Shown one piece after another: positions 322 through 48,323 of a stretch of DNA of 64,000 nucleotides. The notes beneath the pieces are model-generated. The model saw only the letters and a list, made by a program, of their open reading frames with translations, was not told where the DNA came from and ran no database searches. The position numbers and the translations under genes were made by a program. The DNA comes from an uncultured Gammaproteobacteria bacterium (GTDB taxonomy: Bacteria; Pseudomonadota; Gammaproteobacteria; Arenicellales; DRJH01): positions 28,443-92,442 of the forward strand of contig CAYQAP010000002.1 in assembly GCA_964415515.1 (NCBI GenBank), in the 5' to 3' direction. The stretch's first letter is position 1. Each line of letters opens with the position of its first letter.

Positions 322-1335
322 TCAAGGCAATCCATCCGGATTCTGCTGTTGCCAGCGCCAGGTGTCCTCACACATTTGTAGCAGATTTTTCTCTGCTGTC
401 CAACCCAGCTCCTGCTGTGCCAAAGCGGCATCCGCGTAGCAACTGGCAATGTCACCGGGCCGACGTTTTGTGACCTCATAGGGAACCACCTTGCCCGAAG
501 CACGCGCAAATGCCGCCACCAGCTCCAGTACCGATACCCCGCTGCCTGTACCCAGGTTATGGATCATACAGCCAGGATTCTCGGTCAGTTTTTGCAATGC
601 CTTGATATGCCCCCGGGCAAGATCTACAACATGTATATAATCCCGCACGCCGGTTCCGTCTATGGTTGGATAGTCATTGCCAAATACCGCCAGATGAGGC
701 AGTTTGCCCACGGCCACCTGAGAAATATAGGGCATCAAGTTGTTGGGTGTGCCCTGCGGAGACTCCCCAATCAGCCCGGAACAATGAGCACCGACAGGAT
801 TGAAATAGCGCAAAATGGAAATATTCCATGCAGGATCGGAGCGGTATAAATCCTGGAGTATCGCCTCGATCATTAACTTGCTCTGACCATAGGGATTGAC
901 CGCACTAAGTGCAAAGTTTTCTTTGATCGGCAAGGATGCCGGTTCACCATAAACGGTGGCCGAGGAGCTGAAAACAAGCTGACAAACACGATATTTCTGC
1001 ATAATTCGCAACAAGTTTACAGAGCCGCAAACATTATTTCGATAATATGCCAGAGGCTGTTCGATCGACTCACCCACAGCCTTGAGCCCGGCAAAATGCA
1101 GTACGGCCGCAGGCCGATGACTGGAAAAGACCTCTTCCAGCGATTGGGTATCAAGCAAATCAGCCTGCACAAAAGACGGTGCCTTCCCTGTGATGCTGCG
1201 GATACGTCCCAGCACACTGGGCCTGCTGTTACTGAGATTATCCACTACCACCACGTCGTAACCTGCTGCCATTAATTCGACACAGGTGTGCGAACCGATG
1301 TACCCCGCACCACCGGTAACAAGGACTGTATTCAT
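322..1335 (-). CDS. galE: UDP-glucose 4-epimerase
   Basis: 337 aa. N-terminal Rossmann motif VLVTGGAGYIGSH, catalytic YGQSK, and full-length GalE-like sequence (FNPVGAH, DYPTIDGTGVRDYIHVVDLA). Confidence 0.92.
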   Translation of the reverse strand: MNTVLVTGGAGYIGSHTCVELMAAGYDVVVVDNLSNSRPSVLGRIRSITGKAPSFVQADLLDTQSLEEVFSSHRPAAVLHFAGLKAVGESIEQPLAYYRNNVCGSVNLLRIMQKYRVCQLVFSSSATVYGEPASLPIKENFALSAVNPYGQSKLMIEAILQDLYRSDPAWNISILRYFNPVGAHCSGLIGESPQGTPNNLMPYISQVAVGKLPHLAVFGNDYPTIDGTGVRDYIHVVDLARGHIKALQKLTENPGCMIHNLGTGSGVSVLELVAAFARASGKVVPYEVTKRRPGDIASCYADAALAQQELGWTAEKNLLQMCEDTWRWQQQNPDGLP

Positions 1336-1571: not shown

Positions 1572-2006
1572 ATGACAGCAGATACCAATACAACGGTTCA
1601 GGGAATCCGCAACGATCCTTTCGTAAAAGGCATGCTAAAACGTCTGCCCACAGAACAACGAAGCAGCTTCAGTGAGGAACAATTGCTGGGACTTAAGGTG
1701 GCGCTTGGCGCAAGGACATGGGGTACCCACCGCATTGACCTGCGTTGGACCATGAAGTTATGGAAAAAAAGCTACTATATTGTCATTATTGCAGGCGTCA
1801 ATCGAAGGTCCCCCAACCGTCGACAGCAGAAGCTGGCAAGATTAGGAAAGGCCATATTTTTGGCAACACTCTTTCTTATTCTCAGTGTGTTTAGTCTCCT
1901 CCTGCTATACATTATTAAATCTGCACTTGGTATCGACTTGATAGATAATTTTTCTCTCGGTATTTGGTCTGCTATTAAGAATCTTGTTAATGGAGGCCTG
2001 TACTAA
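1572..2006 (+). CDS. Hypothetical small membrane protein
   Basis: 144-aa ORF with a soluble basic N-terminal part followed by two hydrophobic segments (YYIVIIAGV; AIFLATLFLILSVFSLLLLYII). No family recognised. Confidence 0.45.
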   Translation: MTADTNTTVQGIRNDPFVKGMLKRLPTEQRSSFSEEQLLGLKVALGARTWGTHRIDLRWTMKLWKKSYYIVIIAGVNRRSPNRRQQKLARLGKAIFLATLFLILSVFSLLLLYIIKSALGIDLIDNFSLGIWSAIKNLVNGGLY

Positions 2007-2026
2007 GAATAGGTGTACCGGCTATA

Positions 2027-2051
2027 AGTAGTCAGTTTATTCCTGACTACT
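2027..2051. terminator. Hairpin between convergent genes (9-bp stem AGTAGTCAG / CTGACTACT, 7-nt loop)
   Basis: A perfect 9-bp inverted repeat read directly from the sequence. It overlaps the stop codon of the wzy-like gene. There is no U-tract on either side, so terminator function is uncertain. Confidence 0.3.
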
Positions 2052-3215
2052 ATGCAAAGTGTGCTTATAATCAACGGATTTCACTAGCATCATGGTGAGA
2101 ATTTGATAGGTAATATATATAATTGTATTGTCAGTTGGTAATAATGTCATACTGAAAATAAAAACTAATACACTGAAGCAGTTTCGAATAATAATCGTCC
2201 AGATTGCAAGAATGTATAATAATAATCCTATAATACCATATTCGAATTGCAATTTCAGGAAATCATTATGGGGATTATCAAAAATCAGGTAAATAACCTG
2301 TAATGTATTATCTGCAGAACCAATGCCGTGCCCAAATAGAGTTGAAAATATCTCGGTATTTGATACAATACGATTTAATTCACTTTGAATGGCTATCCTG
2401 CCTTGCAGAAAGTAATCTGCAGAAACATCATAGTAGTGAAAATAATTAAGGATAATCCTTGCAAGATAAGCAATATTCATTGCAATTAGATATAGGATAA
2501 TTACATAGATCACAGCAGTAAATAATGATTTTCTATATCTCTGTGTATTCAGGTATTCTCTGGGCTTGAAACCAAATAAATACAAATATGCGCCTAAAGA
2601 TGCCAATAGGGCAAAAAATGCAATTCTCTTAAAAATAATGCCATTCATAAATAGACTGATTGTCATCCATTTATAGTCTTTACGATAAATGAAATATAAT
2701 GAAAAAAGTGCAAACTGGAATGCATTATCTTCTTGCAAGGCAATTGAATCTACCAAATATGATCTTACGTTGAAACTGACATTAGTTTTAAAGGTAAACC
2801 CTACTAATGAATTGATCACAAAAACAATAAACAGGGTTTTTATCATTTTATCTGAAATCGCAACTACGGGTATAAAAGTGATAAATACAGCGCTAATAAT
2901 TAGAAAATCCCGGTAGGAAAAGAATGTTGCATATTGAAGGCTTAATAATGAAAATATAACAGCAATAATATATAAGAACAGCCCCAAAACCATTTTTTTA
3001 TCAAAAAGTATTACTTTTAGGATGACACTATTGAGAATTCCTGATACAAGAGAAATATATGGTAATATGTAAATAAGTTGTTGCAGCCCGGGAATTATAT
3101 TTCTTAAGGTAAATAAGATAGCAAAACTTCCACATACAACCCATCCTTGCCTGATCTTTAATAGTGCTAAAGCATCAGCTCTGGGATCAGAACTTGGAGT
3201 ACAAGATATTACCAT
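2037..3215 (-). CDS. Wzy-type polysaccharide polymerase / O-antigen ligase family (Wzy_C) membrane protein
   Basis: 392 aa, almost entirely hydrophobic segments, very AT-rich codons. The motif HNDFLKLQFEYGIIGLLLY matches the Wzy_C signature (compare HNDYLEFLLETGLIG in 10296..11723). Confidence 0.7.
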   Translation of the reverse strand: MVISCTPSSDPRADALALLKIRQGWVVCGSFAILFTLRNIIPGLQQLIYILPYISLVSGILNSVILKVILFDKKMVLGLFLYIIAVIFSLLSLQYATFFSYRDFLIISAVFITFIPVVAISDKMIKTLFIVFVINSLVGFTFKTNVSFNVRSYLVDSIALQEDNAFQFALFSLYFIYRKDYKWMTISLFMNGIIFKRIAFFALLASLGAYLYLFGFKPREYLNTQRYRKSLFTAVIYVIILYLIAMNIAYLARIILNYFHYYDVSADYFLQGRIAIQSELNRIVSNTEIFSTLFGHGIGSADNTLQVIYLIFDNPHNDFLKLQFEYGIIGLLLYILAIWTIIIRNCFSVLVFIFSMTLLPTDNTIIYITYQILTMMLVKSVDYKHTLHSSQE

Positions 3216-3426
3216 TTTGGTTGCACTTTAAGTATTATACTCTATTAATAAGTTATCAGTATAATTATGGGCTATAATGTATGTTTACAGTTACATCGCA
3301 TTTCACAAAAAGCCAAGTTAATTGATCCATCAGTACAGACTGATTGTAGGCTCATGATCGTGCTATATTTAATTTCAGTTGAATATCATCACATAAACTA
3401 TATTGAGACTAACATATTAACACAAC

Positions 3427-3435
3427 ACTATAATG
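3427..3435. repeat. Left copy of putative 9-bp target-site duplication (ACTATAATG)
   Basis: Directly abuts the left inverted repeat. Matches 8/9 with ACTAAAATG at 4182..4190. Confidence 0.6.
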
Positions 3436-3453
3436 CATATCGTTACCGTTATC
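3436..3453. repeat. Left terminal inverted repeat CATATCGTTACCGTTATC
   Basis: The reverse complement of 4164..4181 is CATACCGTTACCGTTATC, with one mismatch at position 5. Confidence 0.8.
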
Positions 3454-3769
3454 TCGGAAATGGCAATTTCGCTGGACACGGCAAAAATGAATCTGATCTA
3501 ATGCGCTTCAAATCACACCGGAGAGCCCCATGGATGTCCAGCACCTGCCGCAGAAAATCTGTAATCGCCTCTTTGATGCCCAGGCACTGGCCCAGATTCG
3601 TCATATTGTTCATGTTTGCTGCGAGCAAGCCAGCAGGCACAGGCGCCACGGTGCCCCGTTACCGATCAAACAGATCTGGCTGTACCCACTTGCGCAGGGA
3701 TGTTCGCAAACGCTTGTGTGCTCCGCTGCCGCCACTGCCGGTGCTCACCCACTCCGTAGCGGGTTCGAC

Positions 3770-4168
3770 ATGAAGACGGTGACCGCCATTGAACCGCAAA
3801 CAACCCAAACCCTGGCGGATGAGACCCTGGGTATCGAGTTGGGCGACAAACGACTAAATTGGCGTGCCGGCAAGGCGATCGAGCAACTGGGTCGTCAGCC
3901 GCGCAGCAGCATTCCCTCGGCCAACCGGGGCGGGAGTGAACCACGTTCCGCCTATGATCTATTCGCCCATAAGAACACCGAAGCACAGAAGATTCTGCAA
4001 CCGCATTATCAATCGACGCCGGAACGCATAAAACCGCATCCACGGGTGCTGGTGGCTCAAGCCACCACGGAACTGGACTACACCGGCAGGAACGATATTG
4101 TTGGCCTGAAAAGATGTCGAGATTTTGTGTTAGGTATTGCCGCACAAAAAGCAATCGATCAGCGATAA
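3770..4168 (+). pseudogene. Truncated IS4-family transposase (N-terminal DNA-binding region fused in frame to the extreme C-terminus)
   Basis: 132 aa. LGDKRLNWRAGKAIEQL...SIPSA...AYDLFAHKNTEAQKILQPHYQST...VLVAQATTELDYT parallels Tn5 Tnp LGDPRRTARLVNVAAQL...AYRFIRNPNVSAEAIRKAG...LLAIEDTTSLSY. The first DDE Asp position reads QATT instead of (E/Q)DTT. The tail VGLKRCRDFVLGIAAQKAIDQR resembles IS4 C-termini (GLQRLTDFAAG...). The stop codon lies inside the right IR. About 330 aa of the catalytic core are missing. Confidence 0.75.
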
Positions 4169-4181
4169 CGGTAACGGTATG
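4164..4181. repeat. Right terminal inverted repeat GATAACGGTAACGGTATG
   Basis: Reverse complement of the left IR (17/18). Confidence 0.8.
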
Positions 4182-4190
4182 ACTAAAATG
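4182..4190. repeat. Right copy of putative 9-bp target-site duplication (ACTAAAATG)
   Basis: Directly abuts the right IR. Matches 8/9 with 3427..3435. A 9-bp duplication is the size produced by IS50/Tn5-type elements. Confidence 0.6.
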
Positions 4191-4207
4191 ACATAAAGGA
4201 CATTCAC

Positions 4208-4966
4208 TTGTACGATCCTAATCCTCTATTTTTTACTACTTCCTGGGACGATGGCCATCCTATGGACAACCGCCTTGCAGAACTACTTGCAAAATATGAT
4301 ATTCAAGGAACATTCTACATTCCAGCGACTAATATTGAGGGTAGAAGTACACTTACCGAAAAAGATATTATTTCCCTTTCCAGCTCATTCGAAATTGGTG
4401 GCCATACTTATAGCCATATTTATTTGGATAAATTAAGTTCTGATAGAGCCTGGCATGAAATTGTAGATGGTAAAGAGTATATCGAGCAAATACTTGGTAC
4501 TAAAATCTCTGGCTTTTGTTATCCTGGTGGAAAATATAATTGTTCACTAAAACAACTTGTTAAAAATGCTGGATTTGAATATGCCAGAACAATAGCGAAT
4601 TTAAGCATCACACCTGGATATGATCCCTTTCAACTTTCGACAACACTACAATTATATGATCATAGCAAAACTGTATATTGCAGAAATTATCTAAATAACT
4701 TATATCGTGAAAAAGCAAGCTTCGCACTTCTTCTAATATGCTTGAAAACTAACACATTATCACAACGGTTACATAATTGCCTTGACTTCGCACTAAAATC
4801 AGGAGGAATCTTTCACCTCTGGGGCCATTCATGGGAAATTGAAGAATATCAAGGCTGGAAAATACTTGAAAACTTTTTTATGGAAATCAATGGTGTTCTC
4901 GATAAAGACTCAAGAATAACCAATTCTCAAACCGCACAACTATTGGCTAATAATACTATATTATGA
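4208..4966 (+). CDS. Polysaccharide deacetylase (NodB-homology/CE4) family protein, no signal peptide
   Basis: 252 aa with a TTG start preceded by AAAGGA. Motifs TTSWDDGHP (TFDDG-like) and EIGGHTYSH (H-S/T-x-x-H). Confidence 0.75.
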   Translation: MYDPNPLFFTTSWDDGHPMDNRLAELLAKYDIQGTFYIPATNIEGRSTLTEKDIISLSSSFEIGGHTYSHIYLDKLSSDRAWHEIVDGKEYIEQILGTKISGFCYPGGKYNCSLKQLVKNAGFEYARTIANLSITPGYDPFQLSTTLQLYDHSKTVYCRNYLNNLYREKASFALLLICLKTNTLSQRLHNCLDFALKSGGIFHLWGHSWEIEEYQGWKILENFFMEINGVLDKDSRITNSQTAQLLANNTIL

Positions 4967-5772
4967 TGTTCAAAACTCTACTCAGAGCAACATTGGGACC
5001 TGTGATGTTGCCACTGCTTTCTCTATATAACCAACGAGTACATCCCTATGCAGTCATACTTCTTTATCATTCAATATCAGATGAATCAAATATAACTGAT
5101 CCAGTTAATATCTCTGCTTTTCGACAACATATGCAATTCCTGGTACAGAATTATACTGTTATTCCACTCAATTCAATTCAAAAGGCCTTGTCTTCATTTA
5201 ACAAAGGCAGCAAACCTTATGCAATTATTACTTTTGATGATGGATACCTTGATAATTATACCAACGCATTGCCAATTCTCGATGAATTTCATTTACCCGC
5301 CACTTTCTTTCTTGCTACTTCCGAAATAGGAAGTGAAGCTAATCCCAGACTCCGAAGTCAATATGGCATTGAAATCCCAATGATGGATTGGCACCACATT
5401 AAGCAGCTGTTAGCAAGGCATCACTTGATCGGCTCACATACTGAATCACATCATACTATGTTAACTTTGTCGGAAGGACAAAGGATTATTGAACTCAAAA
5501 GATCACAAGAACTGATTCATAGAAATACTGGAGTGCTGACAGAGCTATTTTCTTTACCCTATGGGGACAAATACAGCTACACATACCAGGATTGCATGCA
5601 AGTTTCTAAGTATTATAGAATCTGTTGTAATAATATCCGAGGGAAGAATAGTAAAAAGAATCTTGATCTCATTAATCTTTACAGATATTCAATCACTGGA
5701 TCTATGTGTATAAATCAATTCAAAATGGAGCTAAAAGGTTGTTATGACATTTTGGAGATATTCAGGATTTAA
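4963..5772 (+). CDS. Polysaccharide deacetylase (NodB-homology/CE4) family protein
   Basis: 269 aa. Motifs AIITFDDGYLDNY, LPATFFL and IGSHTESHH. ATGA start/stop overlap with the upstream gene. Confidence 0.8.
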   Translation: MMFKTLLRATLGPVMLPLLSLYNQRVHPYAVILLYHSISDESNITDPVNISAFRQHMQFLVQNYTVIPLNSIQKALSSFNKGSKPYAIITFDDGYLDNYTNALPILDEFHLPATFFLATSEIGSEANPRLRSQYGIEIPMMDWHHIKQLLARHHLIGSHTESHHTMLTLSEGQRIIELKRSQELIHRNTGVLTELFSLPYGDKYSYTYQDCMQVSKYYRICCNNIRGKNSKKNLDLINLYRYSITGSMCINQFKMELKGCYDILEIFRI

Positions 5773-5776
5773 ACAA

Positions 5777-6949
5777 ATGAGGAAATCAACACACTGCGAT
5801 TCTTCGGTGCTTTTTATTGAGCGTATCGTTCCCGCTTACCGGGTCCCCTTTTTTCTTGCTATGTACGAGCTGTTACGGCGTGCATCAATTAAGCTTGCTG
5901 TCGTTGGTGGCGCCTGCATGCCGTCTGAATATCTGACTAACTCACTTGTTGAGCTTCCCTTTGGCCATCCTATCCATAATCACTATCTCTTTCGCAGTAT
6001 TTACTGGCAGTCTGGTCTGTTGCAACTAGCGAAATCATCCCAGCTTATTATCACTGGACAGGAAAATCGTTCCTTAACAACTAACATGATAGTGCTGCGA
6101 CGAAGGCTCACCCGGAGACCACCACTTATTGCCTTCTACGACCATGGCCCAGTATCAGCCGGTTCTTCGCTATACTCATCCCTCAACTATGCGCTGAAAA
6201 AATCTTTAAGCCTGCGTGCAGACTGGTGGTTTGCCTATACAGAACTCAGTAAAAGTCGTCTCATCCAAGCAGGCTATAACCAATCTAGAATCACGGTCGT
6301 AAATAATGCAATTGATACACTGAAACTTTCAGAAGCTGTTGAGAAGATTACCCCTGAAGAATTGACTTCTCTATACAACAAGCTATTTGGAGAAAATATT
6401 ACCTCAACCGATAGTGTAGTAATTGCTATATCCTGTACACGCCTTATTGCAGAAAAAAAAATCAAGGCCCTATTGACTGCATTGGACATGATTTATGCCA
6501 CAACCTCACATTTTCGAATGCTTGTGATTGGCGACGGCCCGATGAAAAGCGACCTTCAGAATTTCTGTCGATCACGATCCTGGTGTAAATATCTAGGAGT
6601 GCTTTATGGAAAAGAGCGTAACCAATATTTTGCTTTGGCTGATGTCTGGTTAAATCCTGGAACAGTTGGCCTCACGGTACTTGATGCCTTTGCTTCCTCA
6701 GCCCCATTGTTTACCACTACATCTCCTTCACACGGGCCGGAAATTTGCTATCTCGAGCACAACAACAATGGAGTGATCACAACTGATGATGTAACTCAAT
6801 ACGCAAACTCCGTCACACAAGTCATTCAAAACCCTAAAGAATTACAACGAATGCAGGCATCGGCAAGACAATCAGCATTACATTATAGTCTCGATTCCAT
6901 GGTCAATCACTTTTCCTCTGGCATCGTGAAAGCCCTGTCAGCGGGTTAA
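5777..6949 (+). CDS. Glycosyltransferase, GT-B fold (GT4/GT1-like)
   Basis: The ORF runs 5744..6949. The ATG at 5777 just after the upstream stop is the likelier start. The C-terminal half (VIGDGPMKSDL..., ADVWLNPGTVGLTVLDAFASSAPLFTT) looks like a retaining GT-B sugar transferase. Confidence 0.65.
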   Translation: MRKSTHCDSSVLFIERIVPAYRVPFFLAMYELLRRASIKLAVVGGACMPSEYLTNSLVELPFGHPIHNHYLFRSIYWQSGLLQLAKSSQLIITGQENRSLTTNMIVLRRRLTRRPPLIAFYDHGPVSAGSSLYSSLNYALKKSLSLRADWWFAYTELSKSRLIQAGYNQSRITVVNNAIDTLKLSEAVEKITPEELTSLYNKLFGENITSTDSVVIAISCTRLIAEKKIKALLTALDMIYATTSHFRMLVIGDGPMKSDLQNFCRSRSWCKYLGVLYGKERNQYFALADVWLNPGTVGLTVLDAFASSAPLFTTTSPSHGPEICYLEHNNNGVITTDDVTQYANSVTQVIQNPKELQRMQASARQSALHYSLDSMVNHFSSGIVKALSAG

Positions 6950-8253
6950 TGTTCATCATGAAGCAGGAAAACAAAAAATACCGGCTGTTCAATATTGTTC
7001 AAGGCACTACCCTATCGGTGATCGACCACGCCAGCTTATCTGCCTTGAATTTTCTACTCGGACTTGGTTTCATTAATTTTGGCAGCAAAACAGACTATGG
7101 CAATTACGCGCAGTTATTTGCTTTTATGATACTGATACAGAGTATTTTTCATTCTCTGGTTTATGAGCCGCTATTGACGCTGGCAGCCAAAAAAAGCCCC
7201 ATCAAAACCGCCAGAATGGAGTCCGCGCTGCTCTGGTATCTCACAAGCAGCGCACTTCTTGGCTCTTTCCTGATCTACCTGCTGTTACTCGCCGCCATCC
7301 GATTGCAGTTCATAACGGAACTCAGTACCTCAACCGTATTGCCCTTCTCCTTGGCTATATTTTCCCTTCTCATGCGTGAGTACGTCAGGACCGTATGCTT
7401 TTTGCGCCGTCAACCGGCACGATCTTTACAGGTGGATTCGATTTATGCAATCAGCCTCTGCCTGGGGTTATTGTTTTTTGCCATGACCACTGGATTTGTT
7501 CTTGGTGCGGTTTTCAAATCCATGATCATGGCTAATATCATGGCAGTGATTTTTGGCCTGTTACGGCTACGAATTGAGCCTATCTATCCGCTGCGAGATT
7601 TTCGCCAGGTCATTTACGAAACCTGGAACTGTGCAAAATGGTCGCTGCCACGCTCTGTTGTCACTTGGCTTCTCGCCAACACCTATCTGTACATTACCAG
7701 TTTTTTCTTTGGCTCAGTTATCGTGGCCGAAATTGCTGCTGCGCGACTGTTTATTATGCCCCTGGGGCTATGTTTGACCGCCTGGGAAAAAATCTTTTTA
7801 CCCCGGGCAAGCCGCTGGCTTTCTCACAATGACGTACTTAGGGTCCAGCAGACAGCCCTCTTTTCAGCAAGGATATTTCTGGCACTTGTGTTACTGTATT
7901 TTCTGTTACTTGTCGTCTCCTTTGAGAAAATACAGTTTTATTTATTGGCGAATAACTACTCAAACATTTTACCGTTTGTTTTGCTTTGGGGGGGCTGGGC
8001 TCTGGTCAATTCCTTCCGTACCGTGGCTACAAATTTACTACTCGCCGCCTTAAAGTTTCAGCAACTCTTTCACTATGCAACGATTGTTGCTCTTTTGTCT
8101 TTACCAATTACCGGCATTGCCGCTTTCATTTTAGGCCCAGAGGCCACCCTGGTTACTTATATTCTCTCTGAAGTACTCTTCACCTACCTAACATGGTATA
8201 AAGGCTGGAGCAATGTTCGCAAGGTGCTTCAGACCACAAACACCAGCCCATGA
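6949..8253 (+). CDS. Wzx-type oligosaccharide flippase (MOP superfamily) candidate
   Basis: 434 aa with about 12 or more hydrophobic helices, embedded in the glycosyltransferase operon. TAATG overlap with the upstream gene. Assigned by architecture and context, not by a strong motif. Confidence 0.55.
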   Translation: MFIMKQENKKYRLFNIVQGTTLSVIDHASLSALNFLLGLGFINFGSKTDYGNYAQLFAFMILIQSIFHSLVYEPLLTLAAKKSPIKTARMESALLWYLTSSALLGSFLIYLLLLAAIRLQFITELSTSTVLPFSLAIFSLLMREYVRTVCFLRRQPARSLQVDSIYAISLCLGLLFFAMTTGFVLGAVFKSMIMANIMAVIFGLLRLRIEPIYPLRDFRQVIYETWNCAKWSLPRSVVTWLLANTYLYITSFFFGSVIVAEIAAARLFIMPLGLCLTAWEKIFLPRASRWLSHNDVLRVQQTALFSARIFLALVLLYFLLLVVSFEKIQFYLLANNYSNILPFVLLWGGWALVNSFRTVATNLLLAALKFQQLFHYATIVALLSLPITGIAAFILGPEATLVTYILSEVLFTYLTWYKGWSNVRKVLQTTNTSP

Positions 8254-9455
8254 ACATCCTCATAGGTCACACTAACTATATCGTAGCTGGCGGCGAAGAC
8301 TCCAGTGTTCTCGCCGAGACAGCGTTGCTTCAGGCACATGACCATCAAGTGCTCTTCTATGCCAGAGATAACCATGAAATTCAATCGTATTCTTTGCTCC
8401 AGAATTTAGGACTTTTCTTTACCACCCGCTGGTCACAACATACATACCAGCGTATCTATGATTTGTGCTATAAGCAAAAACCCGATATCGCCCACTTTCA
8501 TAATACATTCCCTCTCCTTTCTCCTGCTGTTTACTACGCCTGCCAGGATGCAAAGGTACCAGTTGTTCAAACACTGCATAATTATCGACTTATCTGTCCG
8601 GGTGCATTACTGCTCCGAGATGGCAGAGTCTGTGAACAATGTCTTAACCAGTCTCTCTACAAAGCAGTGCTACATGGTTGTTATCGGAACTCTGCCATAC
8701 AGACTTTGGCTGTCTCCAGAATGCTATCTTACCACCGTAACAAAAACACCTGGAATAACAAAGTTGATCAATATATAGCTTTAACCAATTTTGCCAAGAC
8801 AATGTTTGTTCGAGCTGGCCTTCCGGAACAACGAATAACCGTTAAGCCTAATTTCACAGCCGACCCCGACAACCTCGTTTTGCCTCAGCAGCGTTGTGGT
8901 GCGGTGTATGTTGGCCGATTAAGCCAGGAAAAAGGAATCATAACGCTACTGAGGTCCTGGAAAAATATAGCTCAGCCACTTAACGTTGTCGGTGGTGGGC
9001 CGTTACTGAACACTGCCCTGAGCTCAGCTTCTTCATGTGTAAAAATTTTAGGCAACCTCCCCAGGGACAAGGTTTCTTCAACTATGCAAGAGGCGCTGTT
9101 TCTCGTTTTACCCTCCGAGTGCTACGAGGGATTTCCCCTGGTCATTGCAGAAGCTTTCGCCCATGGTCTCCCCGTTGTTTGCTCAAGGCTAGGGGGCATG
9201 CAGGAAATTGTTAAAGATCACCTTACTGGCTTGCACTTTACGCCGGGTGATGCACAAGACCTGGCCGTAAAATGCCAGTGGCTTTTTGACCACCCGGAGG
9301 AGCGTTTAAACATGTCGGAATGTGCCCGTGCTGAGTACCTCAAACATTACACTCCAGAAACAAACTATAACCTTCTCCTGGATATCTACCGATCAACAAT
9401 TATGCAGTACCGCTCAAACCAGGAAAACCCGCATGATTCTTCAGGCCACTCATGA
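8250..9455 (+). CDS. Glycosyltransferase family 1/4
   Basis: 401 aa. LSQEKGI, ECYEGFPLVIAEAFAHGLPVVCSRLGGMQEIV (E-x7-E region). ATGA overlap with the upstream gene. Confidence 0.85.
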   Translation: MNILIGHTNYIVAGGEDSSVLAETALLQAHDHQVLFYARDNHEIQSYSLLQNLGLFFTTRWSQHTYQRIYDLCYKQKPDIAHFHNTFPLLSPAVYYACQDAKVPVVQTLHNYRLICPGALLLRDGRVCEQCLNQSLYKAVLHGCYRNSAIQTLAVSRMLSYHRNKNTWNNKVDQYIALTNFAKTMFVRAGLPEQRITVKPNFTADPDNLVLPQQRCGAVYVGRLSQEKGIITLLRSWKNIAQPLNVVGGGPLLNTALSSASSCVKILGNLPRDKVSSTMQEALFLVLPSECYEGFPLVIAEAFAHGLPVVCSRLGGMQEIVKDHLTGLHFTPGDAQDLAVKCQWLFDHPEERLNMSECARAEYLKHYTPETNYNLLLDIYRSTIMQYRSNQENPHDSSGHS

Positions 9456-10213
9456 TTCCTTCGGTCAATATTCTTGGAACCCTGGTATCGGCTGTTAATT
9501 CAGAACTGGCCATTGCCACGATTTGCCACTGGATCGAAACCGGGGTTAAAGCCTATGTATGCGTGCGTGATGTGCATGGTATTATTCGCGCCCTACACGA
9601 TCCCGAATTCAAGAAGATCCAAAACCAGGCAGGAATGTGTGTTCCGGACGGAATGCCCACTGTACTGGTCGGGAGGTATTATGGACATACTAAAATGTCC
9701 AGAGTTCGTGGTGCTGATTTTATGAATCAGCTGTCAGCAGTATCCGTCGTCAAATCCATCAGGCATTTCTACTATGGTGGCAAGCCGGGGGTTGCTGATC
9801 TTCTCAAACATCGCATGCAGGCACGATTTCCCGGTTTACAGGTTGTGGGAACCTATTCACCGCCTTTTCGCCCACTCTCATCATCACAGAAAGCCGCGTT
9901 TATCGCCCAGATCGAAGCGCTCGCACCGGACATTATCTGGGTTGGGCTAAGCACCCCAAAACAGGAATCCTGGATGGCAGAATATCTTGAGCTACTCAAT
10001 GTCAAGGTATTGATTGGAGTAGGAGCCGCTTTTGATTTTCACACCGGGTTGGTCAAAGAGGCACCTAAGTGGATGCAAAAGTCCGGATTCGAATGGCTGT
10101 TCAGACTTTTTTCGGAACCTCGCAGGCTGTGGAAGCGCTATTTTTACATTATTCCACTTTTCCTGTTTCATTTGTCCTGCCAGTTATCTGGACTGCGTAA
10201 ATACAAGCCCTGA
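9452..10213 (+). CDS. WecB/TagA/CpsF family glycosyltransferase
   Basis: 253 aa. VNSELAIATI..., ADGMP, YGGKPGVA, WVGLSTPKQE, GVGAAFDFHTG, EWLFRLFSEPRRLWKRY are typical of this family. ATGA overlap with the upstream gene. Confidence 0.85.
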   Translation: MIPSVNILGTLVSAVNSELAIATICHWIETGVKAYVCVRDVHGIIRALHDPEFKKIQNQAGMCVPDGMPTVLVGRYYGHTKMSRVRGADFMNQLSAVSVVKSIRHFYYGGKPGVADLLKHRMQARFPGLQVVGTYSPPFRPLSSSQKAAFIAQIEALAPDIIWVGLSTPKQESWMAEYLELLNVKVLIGVGAAFDFHTGLVKEAPKWMQKSGFEWLFRLFSEPRRLWKRYFYIIPLFLFHLSCQLSGLRKYKP

Positions 10214-10295
10214 TCTGCAATGAACTCTTCTGCTTTTAACCACCCCATTAGCGCCTGCCCATGACACTGATCTCACTATTCAGGGAAATTTTGCA

Positions 10296-11723
10296 ATGAG
10301 CCAAAACCAACCTGCCGACAAAGGTCTATTTTATGGCTTTTTGGCACTTCTTTATTGGCTCCCTTTGCCTCTGGGCAGCAATCGGGGCTTTGCCATCATG
10401 ATTTTTGTACTTGTGGTTTGCCTGCTCAGCCTGTGGTGGTTGATTCTTTACTGGAGAAACAGGGTTCGTATTTCTTCAGCCTTCAAAAATACCTGGCCCT
10501 TGCAATTTCTTTTAGTACTATTTCTTGGCTACATTCTTCTGCAGCTACTCCCAATACCATCACCCTGGCTCGCAGCGCTGTCACCGGGATCATTCACCCA
10601 CTGGAACTCAATAAAAATCTTTAGGCCAGATAAAACCTTCGCTGCTCTATCACTCTCCCCTGATGACACATCATGGTTTCTCCTGAAAAGTGTTGGCTAT
10701 GTCCTGCTTTTCAACCTGACATTATTGATGGTCCGTAGTCATTCGCGGATCCGCCTATTACTCTTGACTCTGGTGATCAGTGGAACCTTACAGGCCATCT
10801 ATGGAAGCCTGATGATGTTATCGGGTACGGAATTTAGCTTCTTTGCAAAAAAAGCGGCATATTTGGGTTCGGCAACAGGTACTTTTGTTAATCGTAATCA
10901 CGTAGCCGGTTATCTGGAAATGTGCCTGGCAGCTGGCATCGGCCTGCTGATCATGAGCCTTGACCCACACAACAGTACAAACTGGCGTCAGCGCTTTGCC
11001 AATTTCCTGCGCCTGGTACTAAGCCCCAAAATCAAGGTCAGAGCTGCACTCGCCATTATGGTCATCGGCATGGTTCTCACCCATTCGAGAATGGGAAATG
11101 CTGCTTTTTTCATCAGCCTCATCATTACCGGAATTCTCTGGATGCTGCTCTCTGGACAACGGCCTGGCAAGCCCGTTTTATTACTGTTGACCAGTCTTTT
11201 TGTTATTGACCTCTTCATTGTCGGCAATTGGTTTGGTGTCGACAAGGTAGTAGAGCGTATAGAAAATACCCGGGCCAATGCTGAGACACGCGATGAGGTG
11301 GTCCGTGACAGTATAGTCTATGCAAAAAACTTTCGACTAACAGGCAGTGGTGGCGGGACATTTGCCACAGTGTACCCCATCTTCAGGCAAGCAGATGTTC
11401 AAGGTTTCTATGATCACACCCACAATGACTACCTGGAGTTTCTGCTCGAAACCGGACTTATCGGTACCGCTCTGTTAGGTATCTTTACCGCCAGCAGTGT
11501 GCTCGCCGCTTTGCTCTCGATCCGTAAGAGACATCAAGCTGTAATGCGTGGAACCGGCTTTACTGCAACGATGGGGTTGATCGCGATCCTGATTCATTCC
11601 CTGGTTGATTTTAATCTGCAGATTCCTGCCAATGCAGCATTATTTATGGTTTTGTTAGCCTTGGCCTGGATCGCGTTATTTCTCGGTCGCCATCAACGAT
11701 TGCAAAAATCATCTACTTCCTGA
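10296..11723 (+). CDS. O-antigen ligase / Wzy_C family membrane protein
   Basis: 475 aa, polytopic. Contains a large loop with the HTHNDYLEFLLETGLIG signature. Confidence 0.75.
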   Translation: MSQNQPADKGLFYGFLALLYWLPLPLGSNRGFAIMIFVLVVCLLSLWWLILYWRNRVRISSAFKNTWPLQFLLVLFLGYILLQLLPIPSPWLAALSPGSFTHWNSIKIFRPDKTFAALSLSPDDTSWFLLKSVGYVLLFNLTLLMVRSHSRIRLLLLTLVISGTLQAIYGSLMMLSGTEFSFFAKKAAYLGSATGTFVNRNHVAGYLEMCLAAGIGLLIMSLDPHNSTNWRQRFANFLRLVLSPKIKVRAALAIMVIGMVLTHSRMGNAAFFISLIITGILWMLLSGQRPGKPVLLLLTSLFVIDLFIVGNWFGVDKVVERIENTRANAETRDEVVRDSIVYAKNFRLTGSGGGTFATVYPIFRQADVQGFYDHTHNDYLEFLLETGLIGTALLGIFTASSVLAALLSIRKRHQAVMRGTGFTATMGLIAILIHSLVDFNLQIPANAALFMVLLALAWIALFLGRHQRLQKSSTS

Positions 11724-12364
11724 ATACCCTTGACGCGATAACATAGATACAACTTAAGGTTATAGTGTTTGACCACCTTGATCAGGCGGTCTGGGTCAAT
11801 CCTGACCAGTCTGTTGATCTGTTGCTCCAGTCTTCTTCTCTCCTCAGCATGGAGCTCCGACAAATGGCTAAAATATATTTGTATCCCTCCTATTAGTACG
11901 GTCGGCTCATAGCCTCCCAACTCATCCAATTTCCGCATCGCGGTATGAAACTGTGCATCCCGCTGACCCAGCTTGTCCTTGACTATTGCATAGGAAAGCC
12001 AACCGTAAACATAGGCCGGACGTTGAACTACGGCTCGCGTGTATAAGGTGAGAGCCCGCTGTAAAGCCTGATTGCGAGCTGATCCCGATATTTCAAGTGT
12101 TGACCTCCAAAGAAAAAGATCCCCACCAAGTTGTAACAAGGAGGGACTCGAAGCGTGCCAATAGCTTGCCTTATCAAAAAAGGTATTAGCCTTCTGCCAC
12201 TGCTTGTCCGTCGGACTTTTTCCAGCCTGATCCCAACTGTCTGTATACGCCTGCAAAAAATATTGGTTGATAGAAGCCATTCCCAATCTTACTGCGACAT
12301 AGCCCGTCACCAGCAAAAGGATCACAACAAACAGCAACAGTACTTTTTTAGCCAGTATAGACAT
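11693..12364 (-). CDS. Hypothetical membrane-anchored helical-repeat (TPR-like?) protein
   Basis: 223 aa with an N-terminal TM anchor (VLLLFVVILLLVTGYVAV), then an alpha-helical-looking repeat region. Its 3' end overlaps the convergent ligase-like gene by 31 nt. Confidence 0.45.
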   Translation of the reverse strand: MSILAKKVLLLFVVILLLVTGYVAVRLGMASINQYFLQAYTDSWDQAGKSPTDKQWQKANTFFDKASYWHASSPSLLQLGGDLFLWRSTLEISGSARNQALQRALTLYTRAVVQRPAYVYGWLSYAIVKDKLGQRDAQFHTAMRKLDELGGYEPTVLIGGIQIYFSHLSELHAEERRRLEQQINRLVRIDPDRLIKVVKHYNLKLYLCYRVKGIQEVDDFCNR

Positions 12365-12388
12365 CAGGGTGAAAATCCCTGCTAACCA

Positions 12389-13117
12389 TTACAGACCAAA
12401 ATGTACCGCACTGATAGCTGCTGGCATCTCCTGAAAAAGCCTCACTGCTACCCCTTCTCCGGCGTGCTGACAAACCATATCAAACGCAGCTTGCAATCGT
12501 GGTGGTCGATGCACTAGGTTGTGTGCATCTGTAGCCACCACATCAATCCAGCCACGTTCCAGCATTTGCAGTGCTCGCTTTTTTGCATAAGGTCCAAATC
12601 CTCCAGTAATAGAGCGCGCAGTCACTTGCAGCATTGCCCCTGCTTCCCTAATCGGTTCAATTTTTTCCAGATGGGTCAAAACAGCTTTATTTCGTTCGGG
12701 ATGAGCGACCAGTGGCCTGATGTTATGTGACAATAAATATTTAATAAATTTTACTGTGCCTGGCAAAATCATTGAGTGAGGAAATTCCAGCAGCAGGATT
12801 TTATAGCCACCCAGCTTACCCAAAAAAGGGATTTTATTGCCGGCAATCATGGTCATGACCTGTGGATCAATTCGAACCTCGGCCGCAAAAGCAATGCGCA
12901 ATGGGATGCTGCGTGCTAACAGCGCTTGCTGCAGAATCGTATAAGCCGCCTGTATCGAATGGACGTCATTATCGTACCGATTCAAATGAATATGTGGTGT
13001 GATCACTGAGTGGGTAATACCGTCTTCGACAGCAATTTCCACCAACTTCAGCGCATCATCCAGATCGACTGCACCATCGTCGATACCTGGCAAAAGATGG
13101 CTATGTAAATCGATCAT
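12389..13117 (-). CDS. PHP-family protein-tyrosine phosphatase (CpsB/CapC type)
   Basis: The ORF extends to 13153. The internal start MIDLHSHLLPGIDDGA mirrors the S. pneumoniae CpsB N-terminus (MIDIHSH...DDG). Further His-rich metal motifs are present (TPHIH, AHPERN, ATDAHN). Confidence 0.85.
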   Translation of the reverse strand: MIDLHSHLLPGIDDGAVDLDDALKLVEIAVEDGITHSVITPHIHLNRYDNDVHSIQAAYTILQQALLARSIPLRIAFAAEVRIDPQVMTMIAGNKIPFLGKLGGYKILLLEFPHSMILPGTVKFIKYLLSHNIRPLVAHPERNKAVLTHLEKIEPIREAGAMLQVTARSITGGFGPYAKKRALQMLERGWIDVVATDAHNLVHRPPRLQAAFDMVCQHAGEGVAVRLFQEMPAAISAVHFGL

Positions 13118-13258
13118 ATCACTCGGCAGATTAATTAATAACCAGGGAGACATCCTGAATGTGGAGTTTTTGCTATCAACCCCTTAAGCTGCTTTCAGCA
13201 TAGCAGTCGGTCAACCAGCTGAACAGCCCAGTTTTATCGGTATCGATCGAACTTACGA

Positions 13259-15481
13259 TCAGTCATGGTGATAACCCTCATAGGAACCATAATAGCCATA
13301 ATTATAATTGTAGTAACCTTTGTCACTCTTGCCTTGATCATGCGGAATGTCATTGAGTATTCCGCCGATAATATTGGCACCAATGCGACGTAAGCGTTTG
13401 AGGCCTTCCCGAACGGCCGGAATCGGAGTAGACTCAGATTTGACCACATAGATCACACCACTGGATTTGCTAGCCACTACCAAAGAATCACTTACGGCCA
13501 ATGTTGGTGCAGTGTCAATCACAATGGTGTCAAAGACCTTGCTAAAGGTCTCGAGCATTGCACCGAAACGTTTAGAGGAAAGAAGGGCAACCGGGTTGGG
13601 GGGGATTATCCCGGATGGCATCACATGAATATTGCTGTCATCAATTCGATGTATGCATTTACTGATAGTTGCTATACCAGATACATATTCGGATAAGCCC
13701 GGAGCTTTAGAATCAATACTCCACACTTTAGCTACTGTAGGGCGGCGCATATCGGCATCAATCAGCAGTACTTTGGCAAACTCCGCCAGTGAACTGGCAA
13801 GGCTCCCAGAGATAGAGCTCTTACCTTCCCCAGGTACCGAAGAGGTCACCATGATCACCTTGTAAGGATTGTCCAGACTGGAAAGCAACATCCCGGCACG
13901 GATAGTCCTGATTGATTCTGAATAGTAGGACTGCTGGTGCTCCTGCATATAATTGATTGGGTTTTCACCCGCATTCGTTTTTAATTTCAAGTGCGGTAAA
14001 GTGCCCAATTCGGTCATCTGCAGACGACCCTCCAGATCACCCGTACGACGCAATGTATTATCAAGATGCTCATGCAGGAAAGCCACGAAAATACCAAAAA
14101 ATAATCCCAGGATAGTCGCAATAGAAATAATCAATCCTTTCTTGGGTTTGATCGGCTTCAATGCCGGAACTGCAGGATCGGCAATTCTTGCGCCGGGTTT
14201 GATCAGACCCGTTTGCTTGGTTTCCTTGGAGCGATTTAGAAATAATTCAAACAGCTTTTTATTCGATGCCACATCCCGCATCAGCACACCCAACTGATAA
14301 CTTTTACGACTGGTGGACTGAATAGTGTTCTTGGCAGAATTGATTGCTGACAGCAGGGATTGCTCACTGGTTTTAGCAACTTGATAACTTTTCTGAATAC
14401 TTTCCAGGACCACTCGAACCCGTCGATCGACCGCAATCTTGGCGGCCTTGAGGTCGGCCTTGGCCTGAATTAATTTTGGATGCTTGGGCCCATATCGTTT
14501 GCGCAGGGTTTGTAGATTGCGTTGTGAAACTTCTTCAACCTGCTTTAATTTCCCTAGCAACTGATCATTCAGGACTGCAGGCAGGGTACTCAATTTTTCA
14601 ATTGACCCGCCTTTGAGCCTTTTTACCTGCCGCAGTGCAGTTTCAGCTTCCACCCGTTTCTGGCGAGTCAGTATTAATTTGGTTTGCAATTCCTGAAGCT
14701 GCCTGGAATCGAGCGCCCCTACATCATTGGATTCAAGTAAACCCTGTTTTTCACGGTATTGCTGTAATGCAGTTTCAGACTCCTGCAACTTGTTTTTTAA
14801 TGTTTTCAGGCGATCATCCAGCCAAGTGGAAGCCAGTGTGGTTAGTTGCAACTTGGCATCCATATCATTTTCGATATAAGCCTGAGCCAGTGAGTTGACA
14901 ATTTGAGCAACCAAATTTCGATCGTTGGCCTCAAAACTGATCTTTACCAACTGGCTGGAATTGATGGGAATGACCTGAATACGTTGTGTGACTTGATTCA
15001 CCGTTTTCTCAAAGGTCATATTCGCATTGGCTGGTGGTTTGGCAGTTAGTGATGCAGGTAGCCATGTTGGAAGCCAGCTGCGCCAGTCAAAATCAACCAA
15101 CGGTTTCTTACGATCGACAAATTCCGGATTATTGGTCAACTGCAATTTCTTAACAACCTGTCCAACCAGTTTTCTGGATTTAAGTAGTTCATACTGGGTC
15201 CGAAAATAATCATTCCCCCCTAAGCCGTAGACCTCCTTGATGGAAACCACATTATTCTTGTCTGGAGAAATCAGGAGTATTGCAGACGATTGGTAGATAG
15301 GCTTCATGGAGTAAACAACCAACGTCGCCAAAATAGCAATCATCAGGGTCAGTGTAAGAATACTCCACCGGTGTCGCTTAATGACCTGACCGTACTCACG
15401 AAGGTTCAGCTCACCCTCGTCAGATTTGAGCACAGTTGCAGTCTCGTTCTGCTTTATCTCAGTCAATCTTGCTGTCCTCAC
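13259..15481 (-). CDS. wzc: Polysaccharide co-polymerase / tyrosine autokinase (Wzc-type BY-kinase)
   Basis: 740 aa with a GTG start. Two TM segments flank a long coiled-coil periplasmic domain. The C-terminal P-loop domain has SSVPGEGKSS, LLIDADMRRP and IVIDTAP, followed by a Tyr-rich tail GYYNYNYGYYGSYEGY. Confidence 0.9.
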   Translation of the reverse strand: MRTARLTEIKQNETATVLKSDEGELNLREYGQVIKRHRWSILTLTLMIAILATLVVYSMKPIYQSSAILLISPDKNNVVSIKEVYGLGGNDYFRTQYELLKSRKLVGQVVKKLQLTNNPEFVDRKKPLVDFDWRSWLPTWLPASLTAKPPANANMTFEKTVNQVTQRIQVIPINSSQLVKISFEANDRNLVAQIVNSLAQAYIENDMDAKLQLTTLASTWLDDRLKTLKNKLQESETALQQYREKQGLLESNDVGALDSRQLQELQTKLILTRQKRVEAETALRQVKRLKGGSIEKLSTLPAVLNDQLLGKLKQVEEVSQRNLQTLRKRYGPKHPKLIQAKADLKAAKIAVDRRVRVVLESIQKSYQVAKTSEQSLLSAINSAKNTIQSTSRKSYQLGVLMRDVASNKKLFELFLNRSKETKQTGLIKPGARIADPAVPALKPIKPKKGLIISIATILGLFFGIFVAFLHEHLDNTLRRTGDLEGRLQMTELGTLPHLKLKTNAGENPINYMQEHQQSYYSESIRTIRAGMLLSSLDNPYKVIMVTSSVPGEGKSSISGSLASSLAEFAKVLLIDADMRRPTVAKVWSIDSKAPGLSEYVSGIATISKCIHRIDDSNIHVMPSGIIPPNPVALLSSKRFGAMLETFSKVFDTIVIDTAPTLAVSDSLVVASKSSGVIYVVKSESTPIPAVREGLKRLRRIGANIIGGILNDIPHDQGKSDKGYYNYNYGYYGSYEGYHHD

Positions 15482-15725
15482 ACATACAAGACGTAGTGCT
15501 TAAAAAAACATGCAATACGGCGCACCCAAAAATTTTCGAGATATCACCCCACCAGTGTAGCAAACTATTCACAGCCACCCATCCTGCCACTATGGCCTCA
15601 AACAAGCAAAATCTTGAATTAACTTTAGTTCTTCAGTGCAGTTTATTGTTTTTACTTGACCATTGCAATACGACAAACTTGTCAGTCAAAGAAAGCTGGC
15701 ACAGTAGCCCCAAGCCTATTGGGCA

Positions 15726-16301
15726 TTAGAAGAAGCTACGCTTCACAGTGATCACGTCACCAGGTGTTACCAGGGCACTTAATGTAACCTTGGCAGGAGT
15801 AGCGTCAGGAGTTTTACCGGGAACCACAACAATATTTTCCCGATCAGCACGCTCATTGAACCCGCCGGCCAGGGCAATGGCCTTACGAACTGTCATTCCG
15901 GGCTGAAACGGGTAACCACCTGGTATCTTTACCCAGCCGTTGACATAGAAATTACGATACTGCAGTAAGGATACCGTGACAATAGGATCCACCAAATAAG
16001 GGCCTTTGAGCGTGTCGGTGACGAACTTCTCCAGTTCCGCAGCCGTCATGCCCTGGACCTTGATCGCACCGAGAAATGGATAGGAAATTGTTCCACTATC
16101 ACTGACCAAGGTTTCGATGGTCATATCCGGCTCACCGAGCACCTGTATCTTGATTTTATCACCAGCACCAAATTTGTACTCGGTTTGTGCATCAGCTGAT
16201 GTTGAAAATACCAGAAACATAAATGCTAACAACAGGATAAACCCACTACTGATGAAGCCAGAATTGCTGTAGAACAACCACCTTGTTCGATCCACGGTCA
16301 A
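15726..16301 (-). CDS. Polysaccharide export protein, short Wza/EpsE-like (Poly_export + SLBB)
   Basis: 191 aa with a TTG start and a signal-like N-terminus ending STSADA. GDKIKIQV, YPFLGAIKVQGMTAAELE, YVNGWVKIPGGYPFQPGMTVRKAIALAGG. Confidence 0.8.
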   Translation of the reverse strand: MTVDRTRWLFYSNSGFISSGFILLLAFMFLVFSTSADAQTEYKFGAGDKIKIQVLGEPDMTIETLVSDSGTISYPFLGAIKVQGMTAAELEKFVTDTLKGPYLVDPIVTVSLLQYRNFYVNGWVKIPGGYPFQPGMTVRKAIALAGGFNERADRENIVVVPGKTPDATPAKVTLSALVTPGDVITVKRSFF

Positions 16302-16477
16302 AGCACCTGAGTCACTATGATTTCACTCCCGATACCACATTAATTATTGCTCTGATTTAATAGTACCTATCAGGACCATACCCCCGATACAGATTAATAT
16401 TCTCCCAAGCCAATATAGCAGATCTCTATGCTTGGTGTTGTGCTCTATCGTGTGTCCGAGAATATCTGTTTTCATCT

Positions 16478-48314: not shown

Positions 48315-48323
48315 GGTTCCGAC

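Follow-up and report, generated by a model that had tools for sequence, protein, structure and literature searches.

A low-GC central block, probably exchanged by recombination in its flanking genes, and a decayed IS4-family element in the exopolysaccharide locus of an uncultured gammaproteobacterium

The first 18 kb of a 64,000-nucleotide stretch of DNA from an uncultured gammaproteobacterium (GenBank assembly GCA_964415515.1, contig CAYQAP010000002.1, positions 28,443 to 92,442; the whole stretch is called the window in the following) contain an apparent exopolysaccharide (EPS) locus, in which a very AT-rich segment carries a wzy-like gene and two polysaccharide deacetylase genes. This raises the question of whether the segment is a foreign cassette with borders of its own, and, if not, where the unit to which it belongs begins and ends. 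The initial annotation regarded the DNA from 2007 to 5780 as one AT-rich cassette, horizontally exchanged as a unit into a conserved export and priming framework. Our analysis indicates instead that a larger low-GC central block, from ~1.8 to 9.45 kb, lies within a conserved framework; it is probable that this block has been exchanged by recombination in the flanking genes, and that an insertion sequence (IS) inserted into it at a later time. The genes needed to follow the argument, from the left conserved flank to the first gene of the right one, are listed here, where GC3 is the GC fraction at third codon positions and GT stands for glycosyltransferase.

322..1335, minus strand: galE (UDP-glucose 4-epimerase), left conserved flank, genome-like in GC (0.52) and GC3 (0.54)
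1572..2006, plus strand: p144, encoding a small membrane protein of 144 amino acids with one strong transmembrane segment; mosaic gene holding the putative left junction
2037..3215, minus strand: wzy-like gene, coding for a polytopic membrane protein that may be the repeat-unit polymerase; no other gene is as AT-rich (GC 0.31)
3216..3435, no strand: native AT-rich DNA between the divergent wzy gene and pda1 operon (promoter region), GC 0.32
4208..4966, plus strand: pda1, a CE4 (NodB-type) polysaccharide deacetylase, GC 0.349, GC3 0.249
4963..5772, plus strand: pda2, a second CE4 deacetylase, PgaB/IcaB-like, GC3 0.322
5777..6949, plus strand: GT1, a GT4 glycosyltransferase with Glyco_trans_1_4 and Glycos_transf_1 matches, GC 0.44; its start is set at 5777 on the basis of the alignment with the relative L082
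6949..8253, plus strand: p434, a polytopic membrane protein of 434 amino acids with ~9 hydrophobic segments, candidate flippase, GC3 0.53
8250..9455, plus strand: GT2, a GT4 glycosyltransferase (Glycos_transf_1, E = 1.8e-26), last gene of the divergent block
9452..10213, plus strand: glycosyltransferase of the wecG/tagA/cpsF family (Glyco_tran_WecG, E = 2.7e-58), first gene of the right framework

Background composition is defined by 1-kb windows over 18-64 kb, with a mean GC of 0.531 (sd 0.024, minimum 0.468), and by a GC3 of 0.573 ± 0.037 from 36 open reading frames (ORFs). In the sliding-window profile the segments 1761-3435 (GC 0.322, z = -8.5) and 4182-5772 (GC 0.353, z = -7.3) are strongly AT-rich, as the initial annotation had stated from inspection. 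The GC3 values of wzy (0.277), pda1 and pda2 lie far below the background (z = -6.8 to -8.8), and the AT bias sits at synonymous sites. An amino-acid bias of membrane proteins was considered as a cause of the low GC and rejected: the soluble deacetylases are equally AT-rich, and membrane-protein composition cannot account for the low GC3 of wzy because the polytopic p434 has a GC3 of 0.53. The AT-rich stretch is not continuous, since a 746-bp island of 55% GC occupies 3436-4181 (for 3480-4140, GC 0.561, z = +1.2).

The sharp step that had been noticed near 5780, at the junction between the second deacetylase and the glycosyltransferase, is present in the profile: at ~5750-5800 the GC of 100-bp windows rises from 0.28-0.31 to 0.43-0.47, at the pda2/GT1 gene boundary, and GC3 is 0.25-0.32 on the left of the step and 0.40-0.53 on its right. 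What does not hold is the return to a host-like composition at this point: the remaining polysaccharide locus (5773-17875) stays at a GC of 0.46 (range 0.44-0.48, z about -2.8), and genome-like GC is regained abruptly only at ~18.0 kb, at the wbaP/rph boundary. The locus is composed of three compositional tiers, and the DNA past 5780 is not host-like. On the left side there is no edge at 2.0 kb; the GC begins to drop at ~1760, within p144, whose 5' part has a GC of 0.51 and its 3' part of 0.39. This point lies ~250 bp ahead of the hairpin at 2027-2051 with which the left edge had been equated. Separately, the whole EPS locus from 1800 to 17900, and not the cassette alone, is below the genome GC (0.44-0.48 vs 0.53), and two more mild dips are found in 2-kb windows at 48000-51000 and 58000-61000, down to 0.50 and 0.485 respectively.

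Alignment with relatives reveals a variable block between conserved flanks, as had been anticipated, with an extent of ~1.8-9.45 kb and not of 2-5.8 kb. All comparators are metagenomic assemblies, and L-numbers are the locus labels of their contigs. One lineage (L081-L086, L172 and L173, 'MAG TPA Gammaproteobacteria bacterium', GCA_011052285.1, with four further assemblies) keeps the gene order of the window from galE through wza, as at least 5 independent assemblies from different samples show. Towards L082/L172, the framework genes (galE, wecG, ligase-like, VpsP-like, cpsB, wzc and wza) have 78-87% amino acid identity, with a synonymous divergence (dS) of 0.68-1.48 and a nonsynonymous divergence (dN) of 0.08-0.13. 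In detail, GalE is 80% identical to its L082 orthologue (dN 0.13), wecG 87% identical to that of L172 (dS 0.82, dN 0.08), and the framework genes in 10296..17875 are 78-85% identical to those of L172 (dN 0.08-0.12). The central genes (p144, wzy, pda1, pda2, GT1, p434 and GT2) have 54-71% identity and a dN of 0.19-0.38 in the same comparison; the proportion of synonymous differences (pS) is 0.73-0.81, which means saturation (dS at least 2.75 or undefined). Of these, pda2 is 54% identical to its counterpart in the L082 lineage, with saturated dS; towards L082, GT1 reaches 56% (dS 3.1, dN 0.38) and p434 64% (dS 2.75), and GT2 is 71% identical to that of the related lineage (dS 3.2). No discontinuity in divergence is seen at 5.78 kb between the window and L082/L172.

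The left limit of the block becomes visible in two other relatives. In L087, p144 is 79% identical and is followed by a convergent AT-rich wzy (82% amino acid identity by tblastn), the left neighbour being different; L088 has the same left neighbour as L087, and its p144 leads straight into the ligase-like and VpsP-like genes, without the whole segment matching window positions 2.0-10.3 kb. Two sources record the L088 type; a search with its ligase-like protein retrieved no near-identical second context, L170 and L171 being only 55-78% identical. L087 and L088 are ~100% identical over 1400 bp upstream of p144 and over the first ~190 nt of this gene; past this point identity falls to 40-65%, first to 0.65 and then to the random level, the sequences being unrelated. 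Between these two loci, codons 1-62 of p144 have a dS of 0.02 and codons 78-144 a saturated one, and between the window and L087 it rises from 0.37 in the N-terminal part of p144 to 1.23 in its C-terminal part and 1.85 in wzy. The identity followed by complete divergence inside p144 argues that ~1760 is a recombination junction; on this sequence evidence the left junction is placed at window ~1750-1810, in the middle of p144, where the GC begins to fall.

The right junction can be placed at ~9448, where DNA identity between the window and L172 rises from 68% to 85% at the start of wecG. In L172 (1-298) the GT2 orthologue stops at about amino acid 289 of the window protein and abuts wecG, without the C-terminal catalytic part, so that it is probably a pseudogene or a recombination scar. 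The discontinuities at ~1750-1810 and ~9448 leave no support for an exchanged unit bounded at 2007 and 5780. Moreover, in the L081/L082 lineage the cassette is found at the same place and is equally AT-rich (0.28-0.40 vs about 0.53), the GC step at the pda2/GT1 position being weak in L082 (0.365 to 0.41-0.43); this conservation in a relative whose GalE is 80% identical speaks against the initial annotation, and a recent import of 2-5.8 kb into this genome is therefore argued against. The part of the proposal that stands is the exchange itself, as the wzy DNA appears to belong to a segment that recombines independently of its flanks, according to the L087/L088 comparison and to the dS contrast; the part that does not is the limits.

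The region between wzy and the deacetylases had been described as a spacer belonging to the AT-rich block. It turns out to be a dead IS, with the following anatomy.

3436..4181, plus strand: decayed insertion sequence of the IS4/Tn5 family, 746 bp, 55% GC, with a transposase remnant at ~3771-4115
3436-3458 and 4159-4181, no strand: terminal inverted repeats of the IS, 23 nt, CATATCGTTACCGTTATCTCGGA and its complement
3427..3435, no strand: left target-site duplication ACTATAATG, 9 bp, directly outside the inverted repeat
4182..4190, no strand: right target-site duplication ACTAAAATG, 9 bp, 18 nt upstream of the pda1 start codon

The two inverted repeats match at 20 of 23 positions, a level that is reached in 4 of 200 composition-preserving shuffles, and the target duplications ACTATAATG and ACTAAAATG agree at 8 of 9. 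The ORF 3530-4168 matches Tnp_DNA_bind (E = 1.7e-10, 40.9 bits, threshold 24); IS4_FS_Nterm is also recognised (30.7 bits, threshold 27), and the transpos_IS4_3 profile is matched only at positions 2-56 of 405. By tblastn, the transposase remnant has 41-46% amino acid identity to annotated IS4-family transposases on plasmids; no match to plasmids is found at the DNA level by blastn. A full-length relative of the transposase has 439 amino acids, of which ~115 are left here, corresponding to the N-terminal DNA-binding domain only. Since the DDE catalytic domain (DDE_Tnp_1) is not found in the remnant, the IS is a non-autonomous and not a functional element. The N-terminal Tnp_DNA_bind domain, the terminal inverted repeats and the 9-bp target duplication, as in Tn5, are shared with the IS4/Tn5(IS50)-family elements, from which this 746-bp copy differs by the missing DDE domain and by retaining only ~115 of ~440 amino acids. 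Between the left repeat and the transposase start, ~310 bp of GC-rich DNA (3459-3770) have no coding or homology assignment, and the ORFs 3267..3773 and 3666..4154, as well as the first 80 codons of 3530..4168, look spurious.

A repeat search found no second copy of the IS in the 64-kb window, and the element is not present in L081-L086, the lineage carrying the same cassette. When the IS and one target duplication are removed, the spacer between wzy and pda1 measures ~237 bp, vs 251 bp in the L081/L083 lineage. L089, an independent JGI assembly of the same organism, is 99.8% identical to the window over 3479 bp (galE-p144-wzy) and ends at window position 3479, 44 nt into the IS; the break is found there because of the IS, as is expected at a repeated or polymorphic element. 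Since the IS is sited 18 nt upstream of pda1, the pda1 operon is cut off from the native divergent promoter region, and this separation could have a functional effect. The duplicated ACTATAATG contains a perfect TATAAT, which in the uninterrupted sequence would lie ~20 nt upstream of the TTG start of pda1 and its AAGGA ribosome-binding site; judging from this arrangement, the insertion may have split the pda1 promoter. In the more distant relative L171 (2017-2472, GCA_024449685.1) a fragment of a DDE transposase lies a few kb upstream of the ligase-like/wbaP/wza/wzc locus, and p144 is there only as a remnant; IS activity around these EPS loci seems to be recurrent.

As to gene content, the matches to Wzy_C-like and Polysacc_deac_1 models agree with the initial description of a wzy-like gene and two NodB-type deacetylases. 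The wzy-like protein has ~10 or more hydrophobic segments, and its H-N-D-[FY]-L loop also occurs in the other Wzy_C protein of the locus; either of the two may be the polymerase and the other the ligase. Both deacetylases are well above the Polysacc_deac_1 threshold of 23.1 bits: pda1 with 70.3 bits (E = 1.9e-19) and pda2 with 84.0 bits (E = 1.1e-23). The PgaB model recognises pda2 at E = 5e-16, under its cutoff, and neither protein reaches any NCBIfam equivalog cutoff. In pda1 the motifs are SWDDG (12) and HTYSH (66), the N-terminus is not hydrophobic, and the relatives by sequence in the PDB are PgdA and PdaC; in pda2 they are TFDDG (90) and HTESH (159), with BpsB and PgaB as PDB relatives. 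The motif-3 Arg is not obvious in either protein. The idea of 'twin' deacetylases, produced by a tandem duplication, has to be abandoned, as BLASTP finds no similarity between pda1 and pda2. Both enzymes would be expected to modify the polysaccharide, with a probable cytoplasmic location for pda1 and a probable extracytoplasmic one for pda2.

The observations on composition, gene content, IS anatomy, synteny in relatives and divergence discontinuities can be joined in a single scheme, which we favour. The locus would be a capsule-like exopolysaccharide locus of the Wza/Wzc/CpsB/WbaP type in an uncultured marine gammaproteobacterium. Its framework would comprise, on the left, galE with the 5' half of p144 and, on the right, wecG, the genes for the ligase-like Wzy_C and the VpsP-like proteins, cpsB, wzc, wza and wbaP; the central block, ~1.8-9.45 kb, would contain the 3' half of p144, wzy, the two unrelated CE4 deacetylases, GT1, the candidate flippase and GT2. 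The alleles of the block appear to be much older than the flanks, and homologous recombination would have moved or replaced them, crossing over in the middle of p144 on the left and at the GT2/wecG boundary on the right. Within it, wzy, pda1 and pda2 would represent the most compositionally deviant part rather than a separately demonstrated cassette. The IS4-family element would have inserted after the establishment of the cassette, at 18 nt upstream of pda1, within the promoter region between the divergent wzy and pda1, duplicating 9 bp and then losing most of its transposase, thus leaving the GC-rich 'spacer'. The central block would determine the structure of the polysaccharide repeat unit, and its low GC would reflect an origin in, or a circulation through, a lower-GC gene pool.

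Two explanations of the same data compete with this scheme most directly. The AT-rich 2.0-5.8 kb, with wzy and the deacetylases, could be a discrete cassette from a low-GC donor, the step at 5.78 kb being its acquisition boundary; the rise of GC within ~100 bp, exactly at the pda2/GT1 boundary, with the parallel change in GC3, is what such a boundary would look like, and Reeves et al. take segments of differing GC as coming from different sources or assembly times (PMC3715488). We nevertheless consider it unlikely, as divergence has no break at this point, pda2 and GT1 being similarly distant from their counterparts (54% and 56% identity) and both saturated in dS; furthermore, wzy, the deacetylases and GT1 occur together in all lineages in which they are found, the step is weak in L082, and the sole presence/absence polymorphism that has been seen takes out 2.0-10.3 kb whole. 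At the opposite end, there might have been no exchange at all, the locus being inherited vertically with faster evolving central genes and an intrinsically low GC, due to selection, for instance expression control through rare codons or silencing of AT-rich DNA, or to local mutation bias. The same cassette, with the same order and low GC3, does occur in lineages that are saturated towards each other, where GC3 without maintenance should drift towards 0.57; the phylogenies of cassette and flanks agree, and Reeves et al. state that the low GC of wzx and wzy 'needs explanation' (PMC3715488). However, vertical descent does not explain why L087 and L088 match exactly up to a point within p144 and are unrelated beyond it, why dS steps at the same p144 point in three pairwise comparisons, or why identity jumps abruptly at the start of wecG, where the relative has a truncated GT2; constraint at the protein level is unable to shift dS ten-fold or more within one gene, and this explanation appears quite improbable for the locus as a whole.

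The IS remnant inside the block might also be read as the scar of some mobile element that delivered the AT-rich DNA, be it a composite transposon, a genomic island or a prophage. Yet it is a single copy with inverted repeats and a target duplication of its own, in an intergenic position and not flanking the cassette; it is absent from the relative with the same cassette, has no second copy in 64 kb, and is host-like in GC (0.55), which the cassette is not. No integrase ORF is present in 1-18 kb, no flanking repeats were found, and the only tRNA detected with Rfam, at 29444-29515, is far from the locus; delivery by such an element is thus highly improbable. As the window derives from a metagenome-type assembly and L089 breaks at 3479, an in silico joining of AT-rich DNA from another organism by assembly or binning has to be considered as well. 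It can hardly be sustained, given that the independent L089 is 99.8% identical across galE-p144-wzy up to 3479, that five assemblies of the related lineage, made from different samples, show these junctions too, and that the IS accounts for the break at 3479.

Several points weigh against the favoured scheme of exchange through the flanking genes. The match of the wzy-like protein to Wzy_C (E = 1.7e-5, 25.1 bits) is under the gathering score of 31.7, and p434, in the position expected for a Wzx flippase, has no Pfam, NCBIfam or PDB match in sequence-level searches even at E <= 1-10, so that this candidate is a strongly diverged flippase or else a different kind of protein. The dS contrasts come from short segments (~60 codons for each half of p144) and from values near saturation; the right junction is known from one comparator lineage only; the L087 and L088 contigs are 3.6-3.8 kb long and end before the right end of the polymorphism, and, being metagenomic, one of them might formally be an assembly chimera at the conserved 5' part of p144. 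Finally, no donor lineage was identified: only 3 Wzy homologues are retrieved among 5.8 billion proteins, with 100% (the protein itself), 67% and 30% identity, and all fit the host clade. The phylogeny of the cassette, with L087 closer than L082, agrees with that of the flanks, so vertical descent with fast evolution is possible for the window and L082.

On the left side of the block, p144 deserves some attention. It has no Pfam or NCBIfam model; 41 homologues were retrieved, and an alignment shows a family of ~140 amino acids with a conserved N-terminal domain. In distant metagenomic loci its homologues mostly adjoin wecG and/or wbaP-wza-wzc-cpsB, and, from these neighbourhoods, p144 is a regular framework component of EPS loci. 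Some NCBI records call p144 homologues '3-phosphoshikimate 1-carboxyvinyltransferase', which looks like a misannotation. As a query in the genome contig search, GalE retrieves only relatives of <=65% identity from many phyla, uninformative for synteny. Look-ups of Wzy, GT1, GalE and P0001 by exact sequence gave no match. Two other features belong to this region.

1371-1384 and 1397-1416, plus strand: promoter-like motifs CTGTAGACTATAAT and AGCCAGAAAATGCTATGGTT, upstream of p144
2027..2051, no strand: hairpin with a 9-bp stem between the convergent p144 and wzy genes, overlapping the wzy stop codon

The motifs CTGTAGACTATAAT and AGCCAGAAAATGCTATGGTT recur unchanged ahead of p144 in L087 and L088, where the upstream gene is another, and are not present in L082; a sigma-70-like site is found at 1355-1384. 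The two motifs probably represent a conserved promoter together with a leader or operator element. The hairpin exists as it was initially described; folding of a 64-nt context around it gives -19.4 kcal/mol (z = -2.9). Lacking a T-run/U-tract and unreported by the terminator scan, it does not qualify as a canonical terminator, although it may help to end transcription locally. As a junction it was rejected, since neither L082 nor L087 has an equivalent structure, and it is not the compositional edge either.

On the right side, wecG is followed by the remaining framework genes, which have a GC of 0.46-0.48 in 10296..17875, under the genome value.

10296..11723, plus strand: O-antigen-ligase-like Wzy_C protein, with a clear Wzy_C match (71.9 bits)
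11693..12364, minus strand: VpsP-like p223 (NF038257, E = 1e-19, 70.8 bits, under the cutoff of 125)
12389..13153, minus strand: CpsB phosphatase, PHP-type (CpsB_CapC)
13259..15481, minus strand: Wzc (Wzz, GNVR and AAA_31)
15726..16301, minus strand: Wza (Poly_export and SLBB)
16478..17875, minus strand: WbaP-type priming transferase (Bac_transf, E = 1.2e-72, and CoA_binding_3)

Pfam and NCBIfam searches identify here both a Wza/Wzc/phosphatase module for export and regulation and a polyprenyl-phosphate priming glycosyltransferase. The ligase-like Wzy_C gene overlaps the convergent VpsP-like gene, in whose product (11693..12364) no TPR match was found. Some homologues of the ligase-like protein have ~690 amino acids, and one of these homologues (P0153) has a TPR domain; several are labelled 'putative inorganic carbon transporter' by JGI.

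The arrangement recalls known polysaccharide systems. Salmonella O-antigen clusters are made of segments of differing GC, all under the genome value, with glycosyltransferase, wzx and wzy genes at 28-37% GC; their junctions lie in mosaic flanking rml genes, and the donors are unidentified (PMC3715488). Enterobacterial O-antigen and K loci, such as the galactose-initiated O-antigen set of Salmonella, have in common with the present locus a core of low and segmentally uneven GC, with wzy among the lowest, and a conserved flanking framework, p144 being mosaic here as the rml genes are there. The differences are in the host, an uncultured gammaproteobacterium of marine sediment or hydrothermal origin, in the framework, which here is Wza/Wzc/CpsB/WbaP with a second, ligase-like Wzy_C protein and a VpsP-like one, and in the left anchor, which is the uncharacterised p144 and not galF, gnd or rml. 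Wza, Wzc, CpsB, a Bac_transf priming enzyme, a WecG-family glycosyltransferase and a VpsP-like protein are also found in EPS loci of the Vibrio cholerae VPS type and in group-1-capsule-like, Wzx/Wzy-dependent ones; however, the VpsP match is under its cutoff (70.8 vs 125 bits), gene order differs, and no other Vps-specific model was matched. Similarly, pda1 and pda2 resemble CE4 deacetylases such as PgaB/BpsB/IcaB, PgdA/PdaC and HfsH in having Polysacc_deac_1 matches above the gathering score and the Asp-Asp and H-[ST]-x-x-H motifs, and differ from them in reaching no NCBIfam equivalog cutoff. From these comparisons, a variable low-GC core appears to be the ordinary pattern for polysaccharide loci, and the locus does not seem to represent a new kind of system.

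A more speculative reading, to which we give little weight, is that the AT-richness of the wzy-deacetylase module is actively maintained and is not a fading foreign signature, and that the 5' half of p144 is a recombination anchor for EPS switching. The GC3 of the module stays at 0.25-0.36 across mutually saturated lineages, while adjacent genes of the block have 0.40-0.53. If this were true, it would imply selection on composition, for instance rare-codon throttling of a toxic polymerase, or silencing by nucleoid proteins, through which EPS type or expression could be switched; the conserved 5' half of p144 would then be a recurrent, perhaps favoured, crossover anchor in these marine gammaproteobacteria.

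For the annotation of such loci, the present analysis redraws the limits of the variable region, recognises the 'spacer' as a dead IS, and flags the widespread and so far unannotated p144 as a regular component of EPS loci. If the central block has indeed been exchanged through its flanking genes, as we consider probable, the mosaic architecture of the O-antigen and capsule loci of pathogens would operate also in uncultured gammaproteobacteria of marine sediments and hydrothermal environments.

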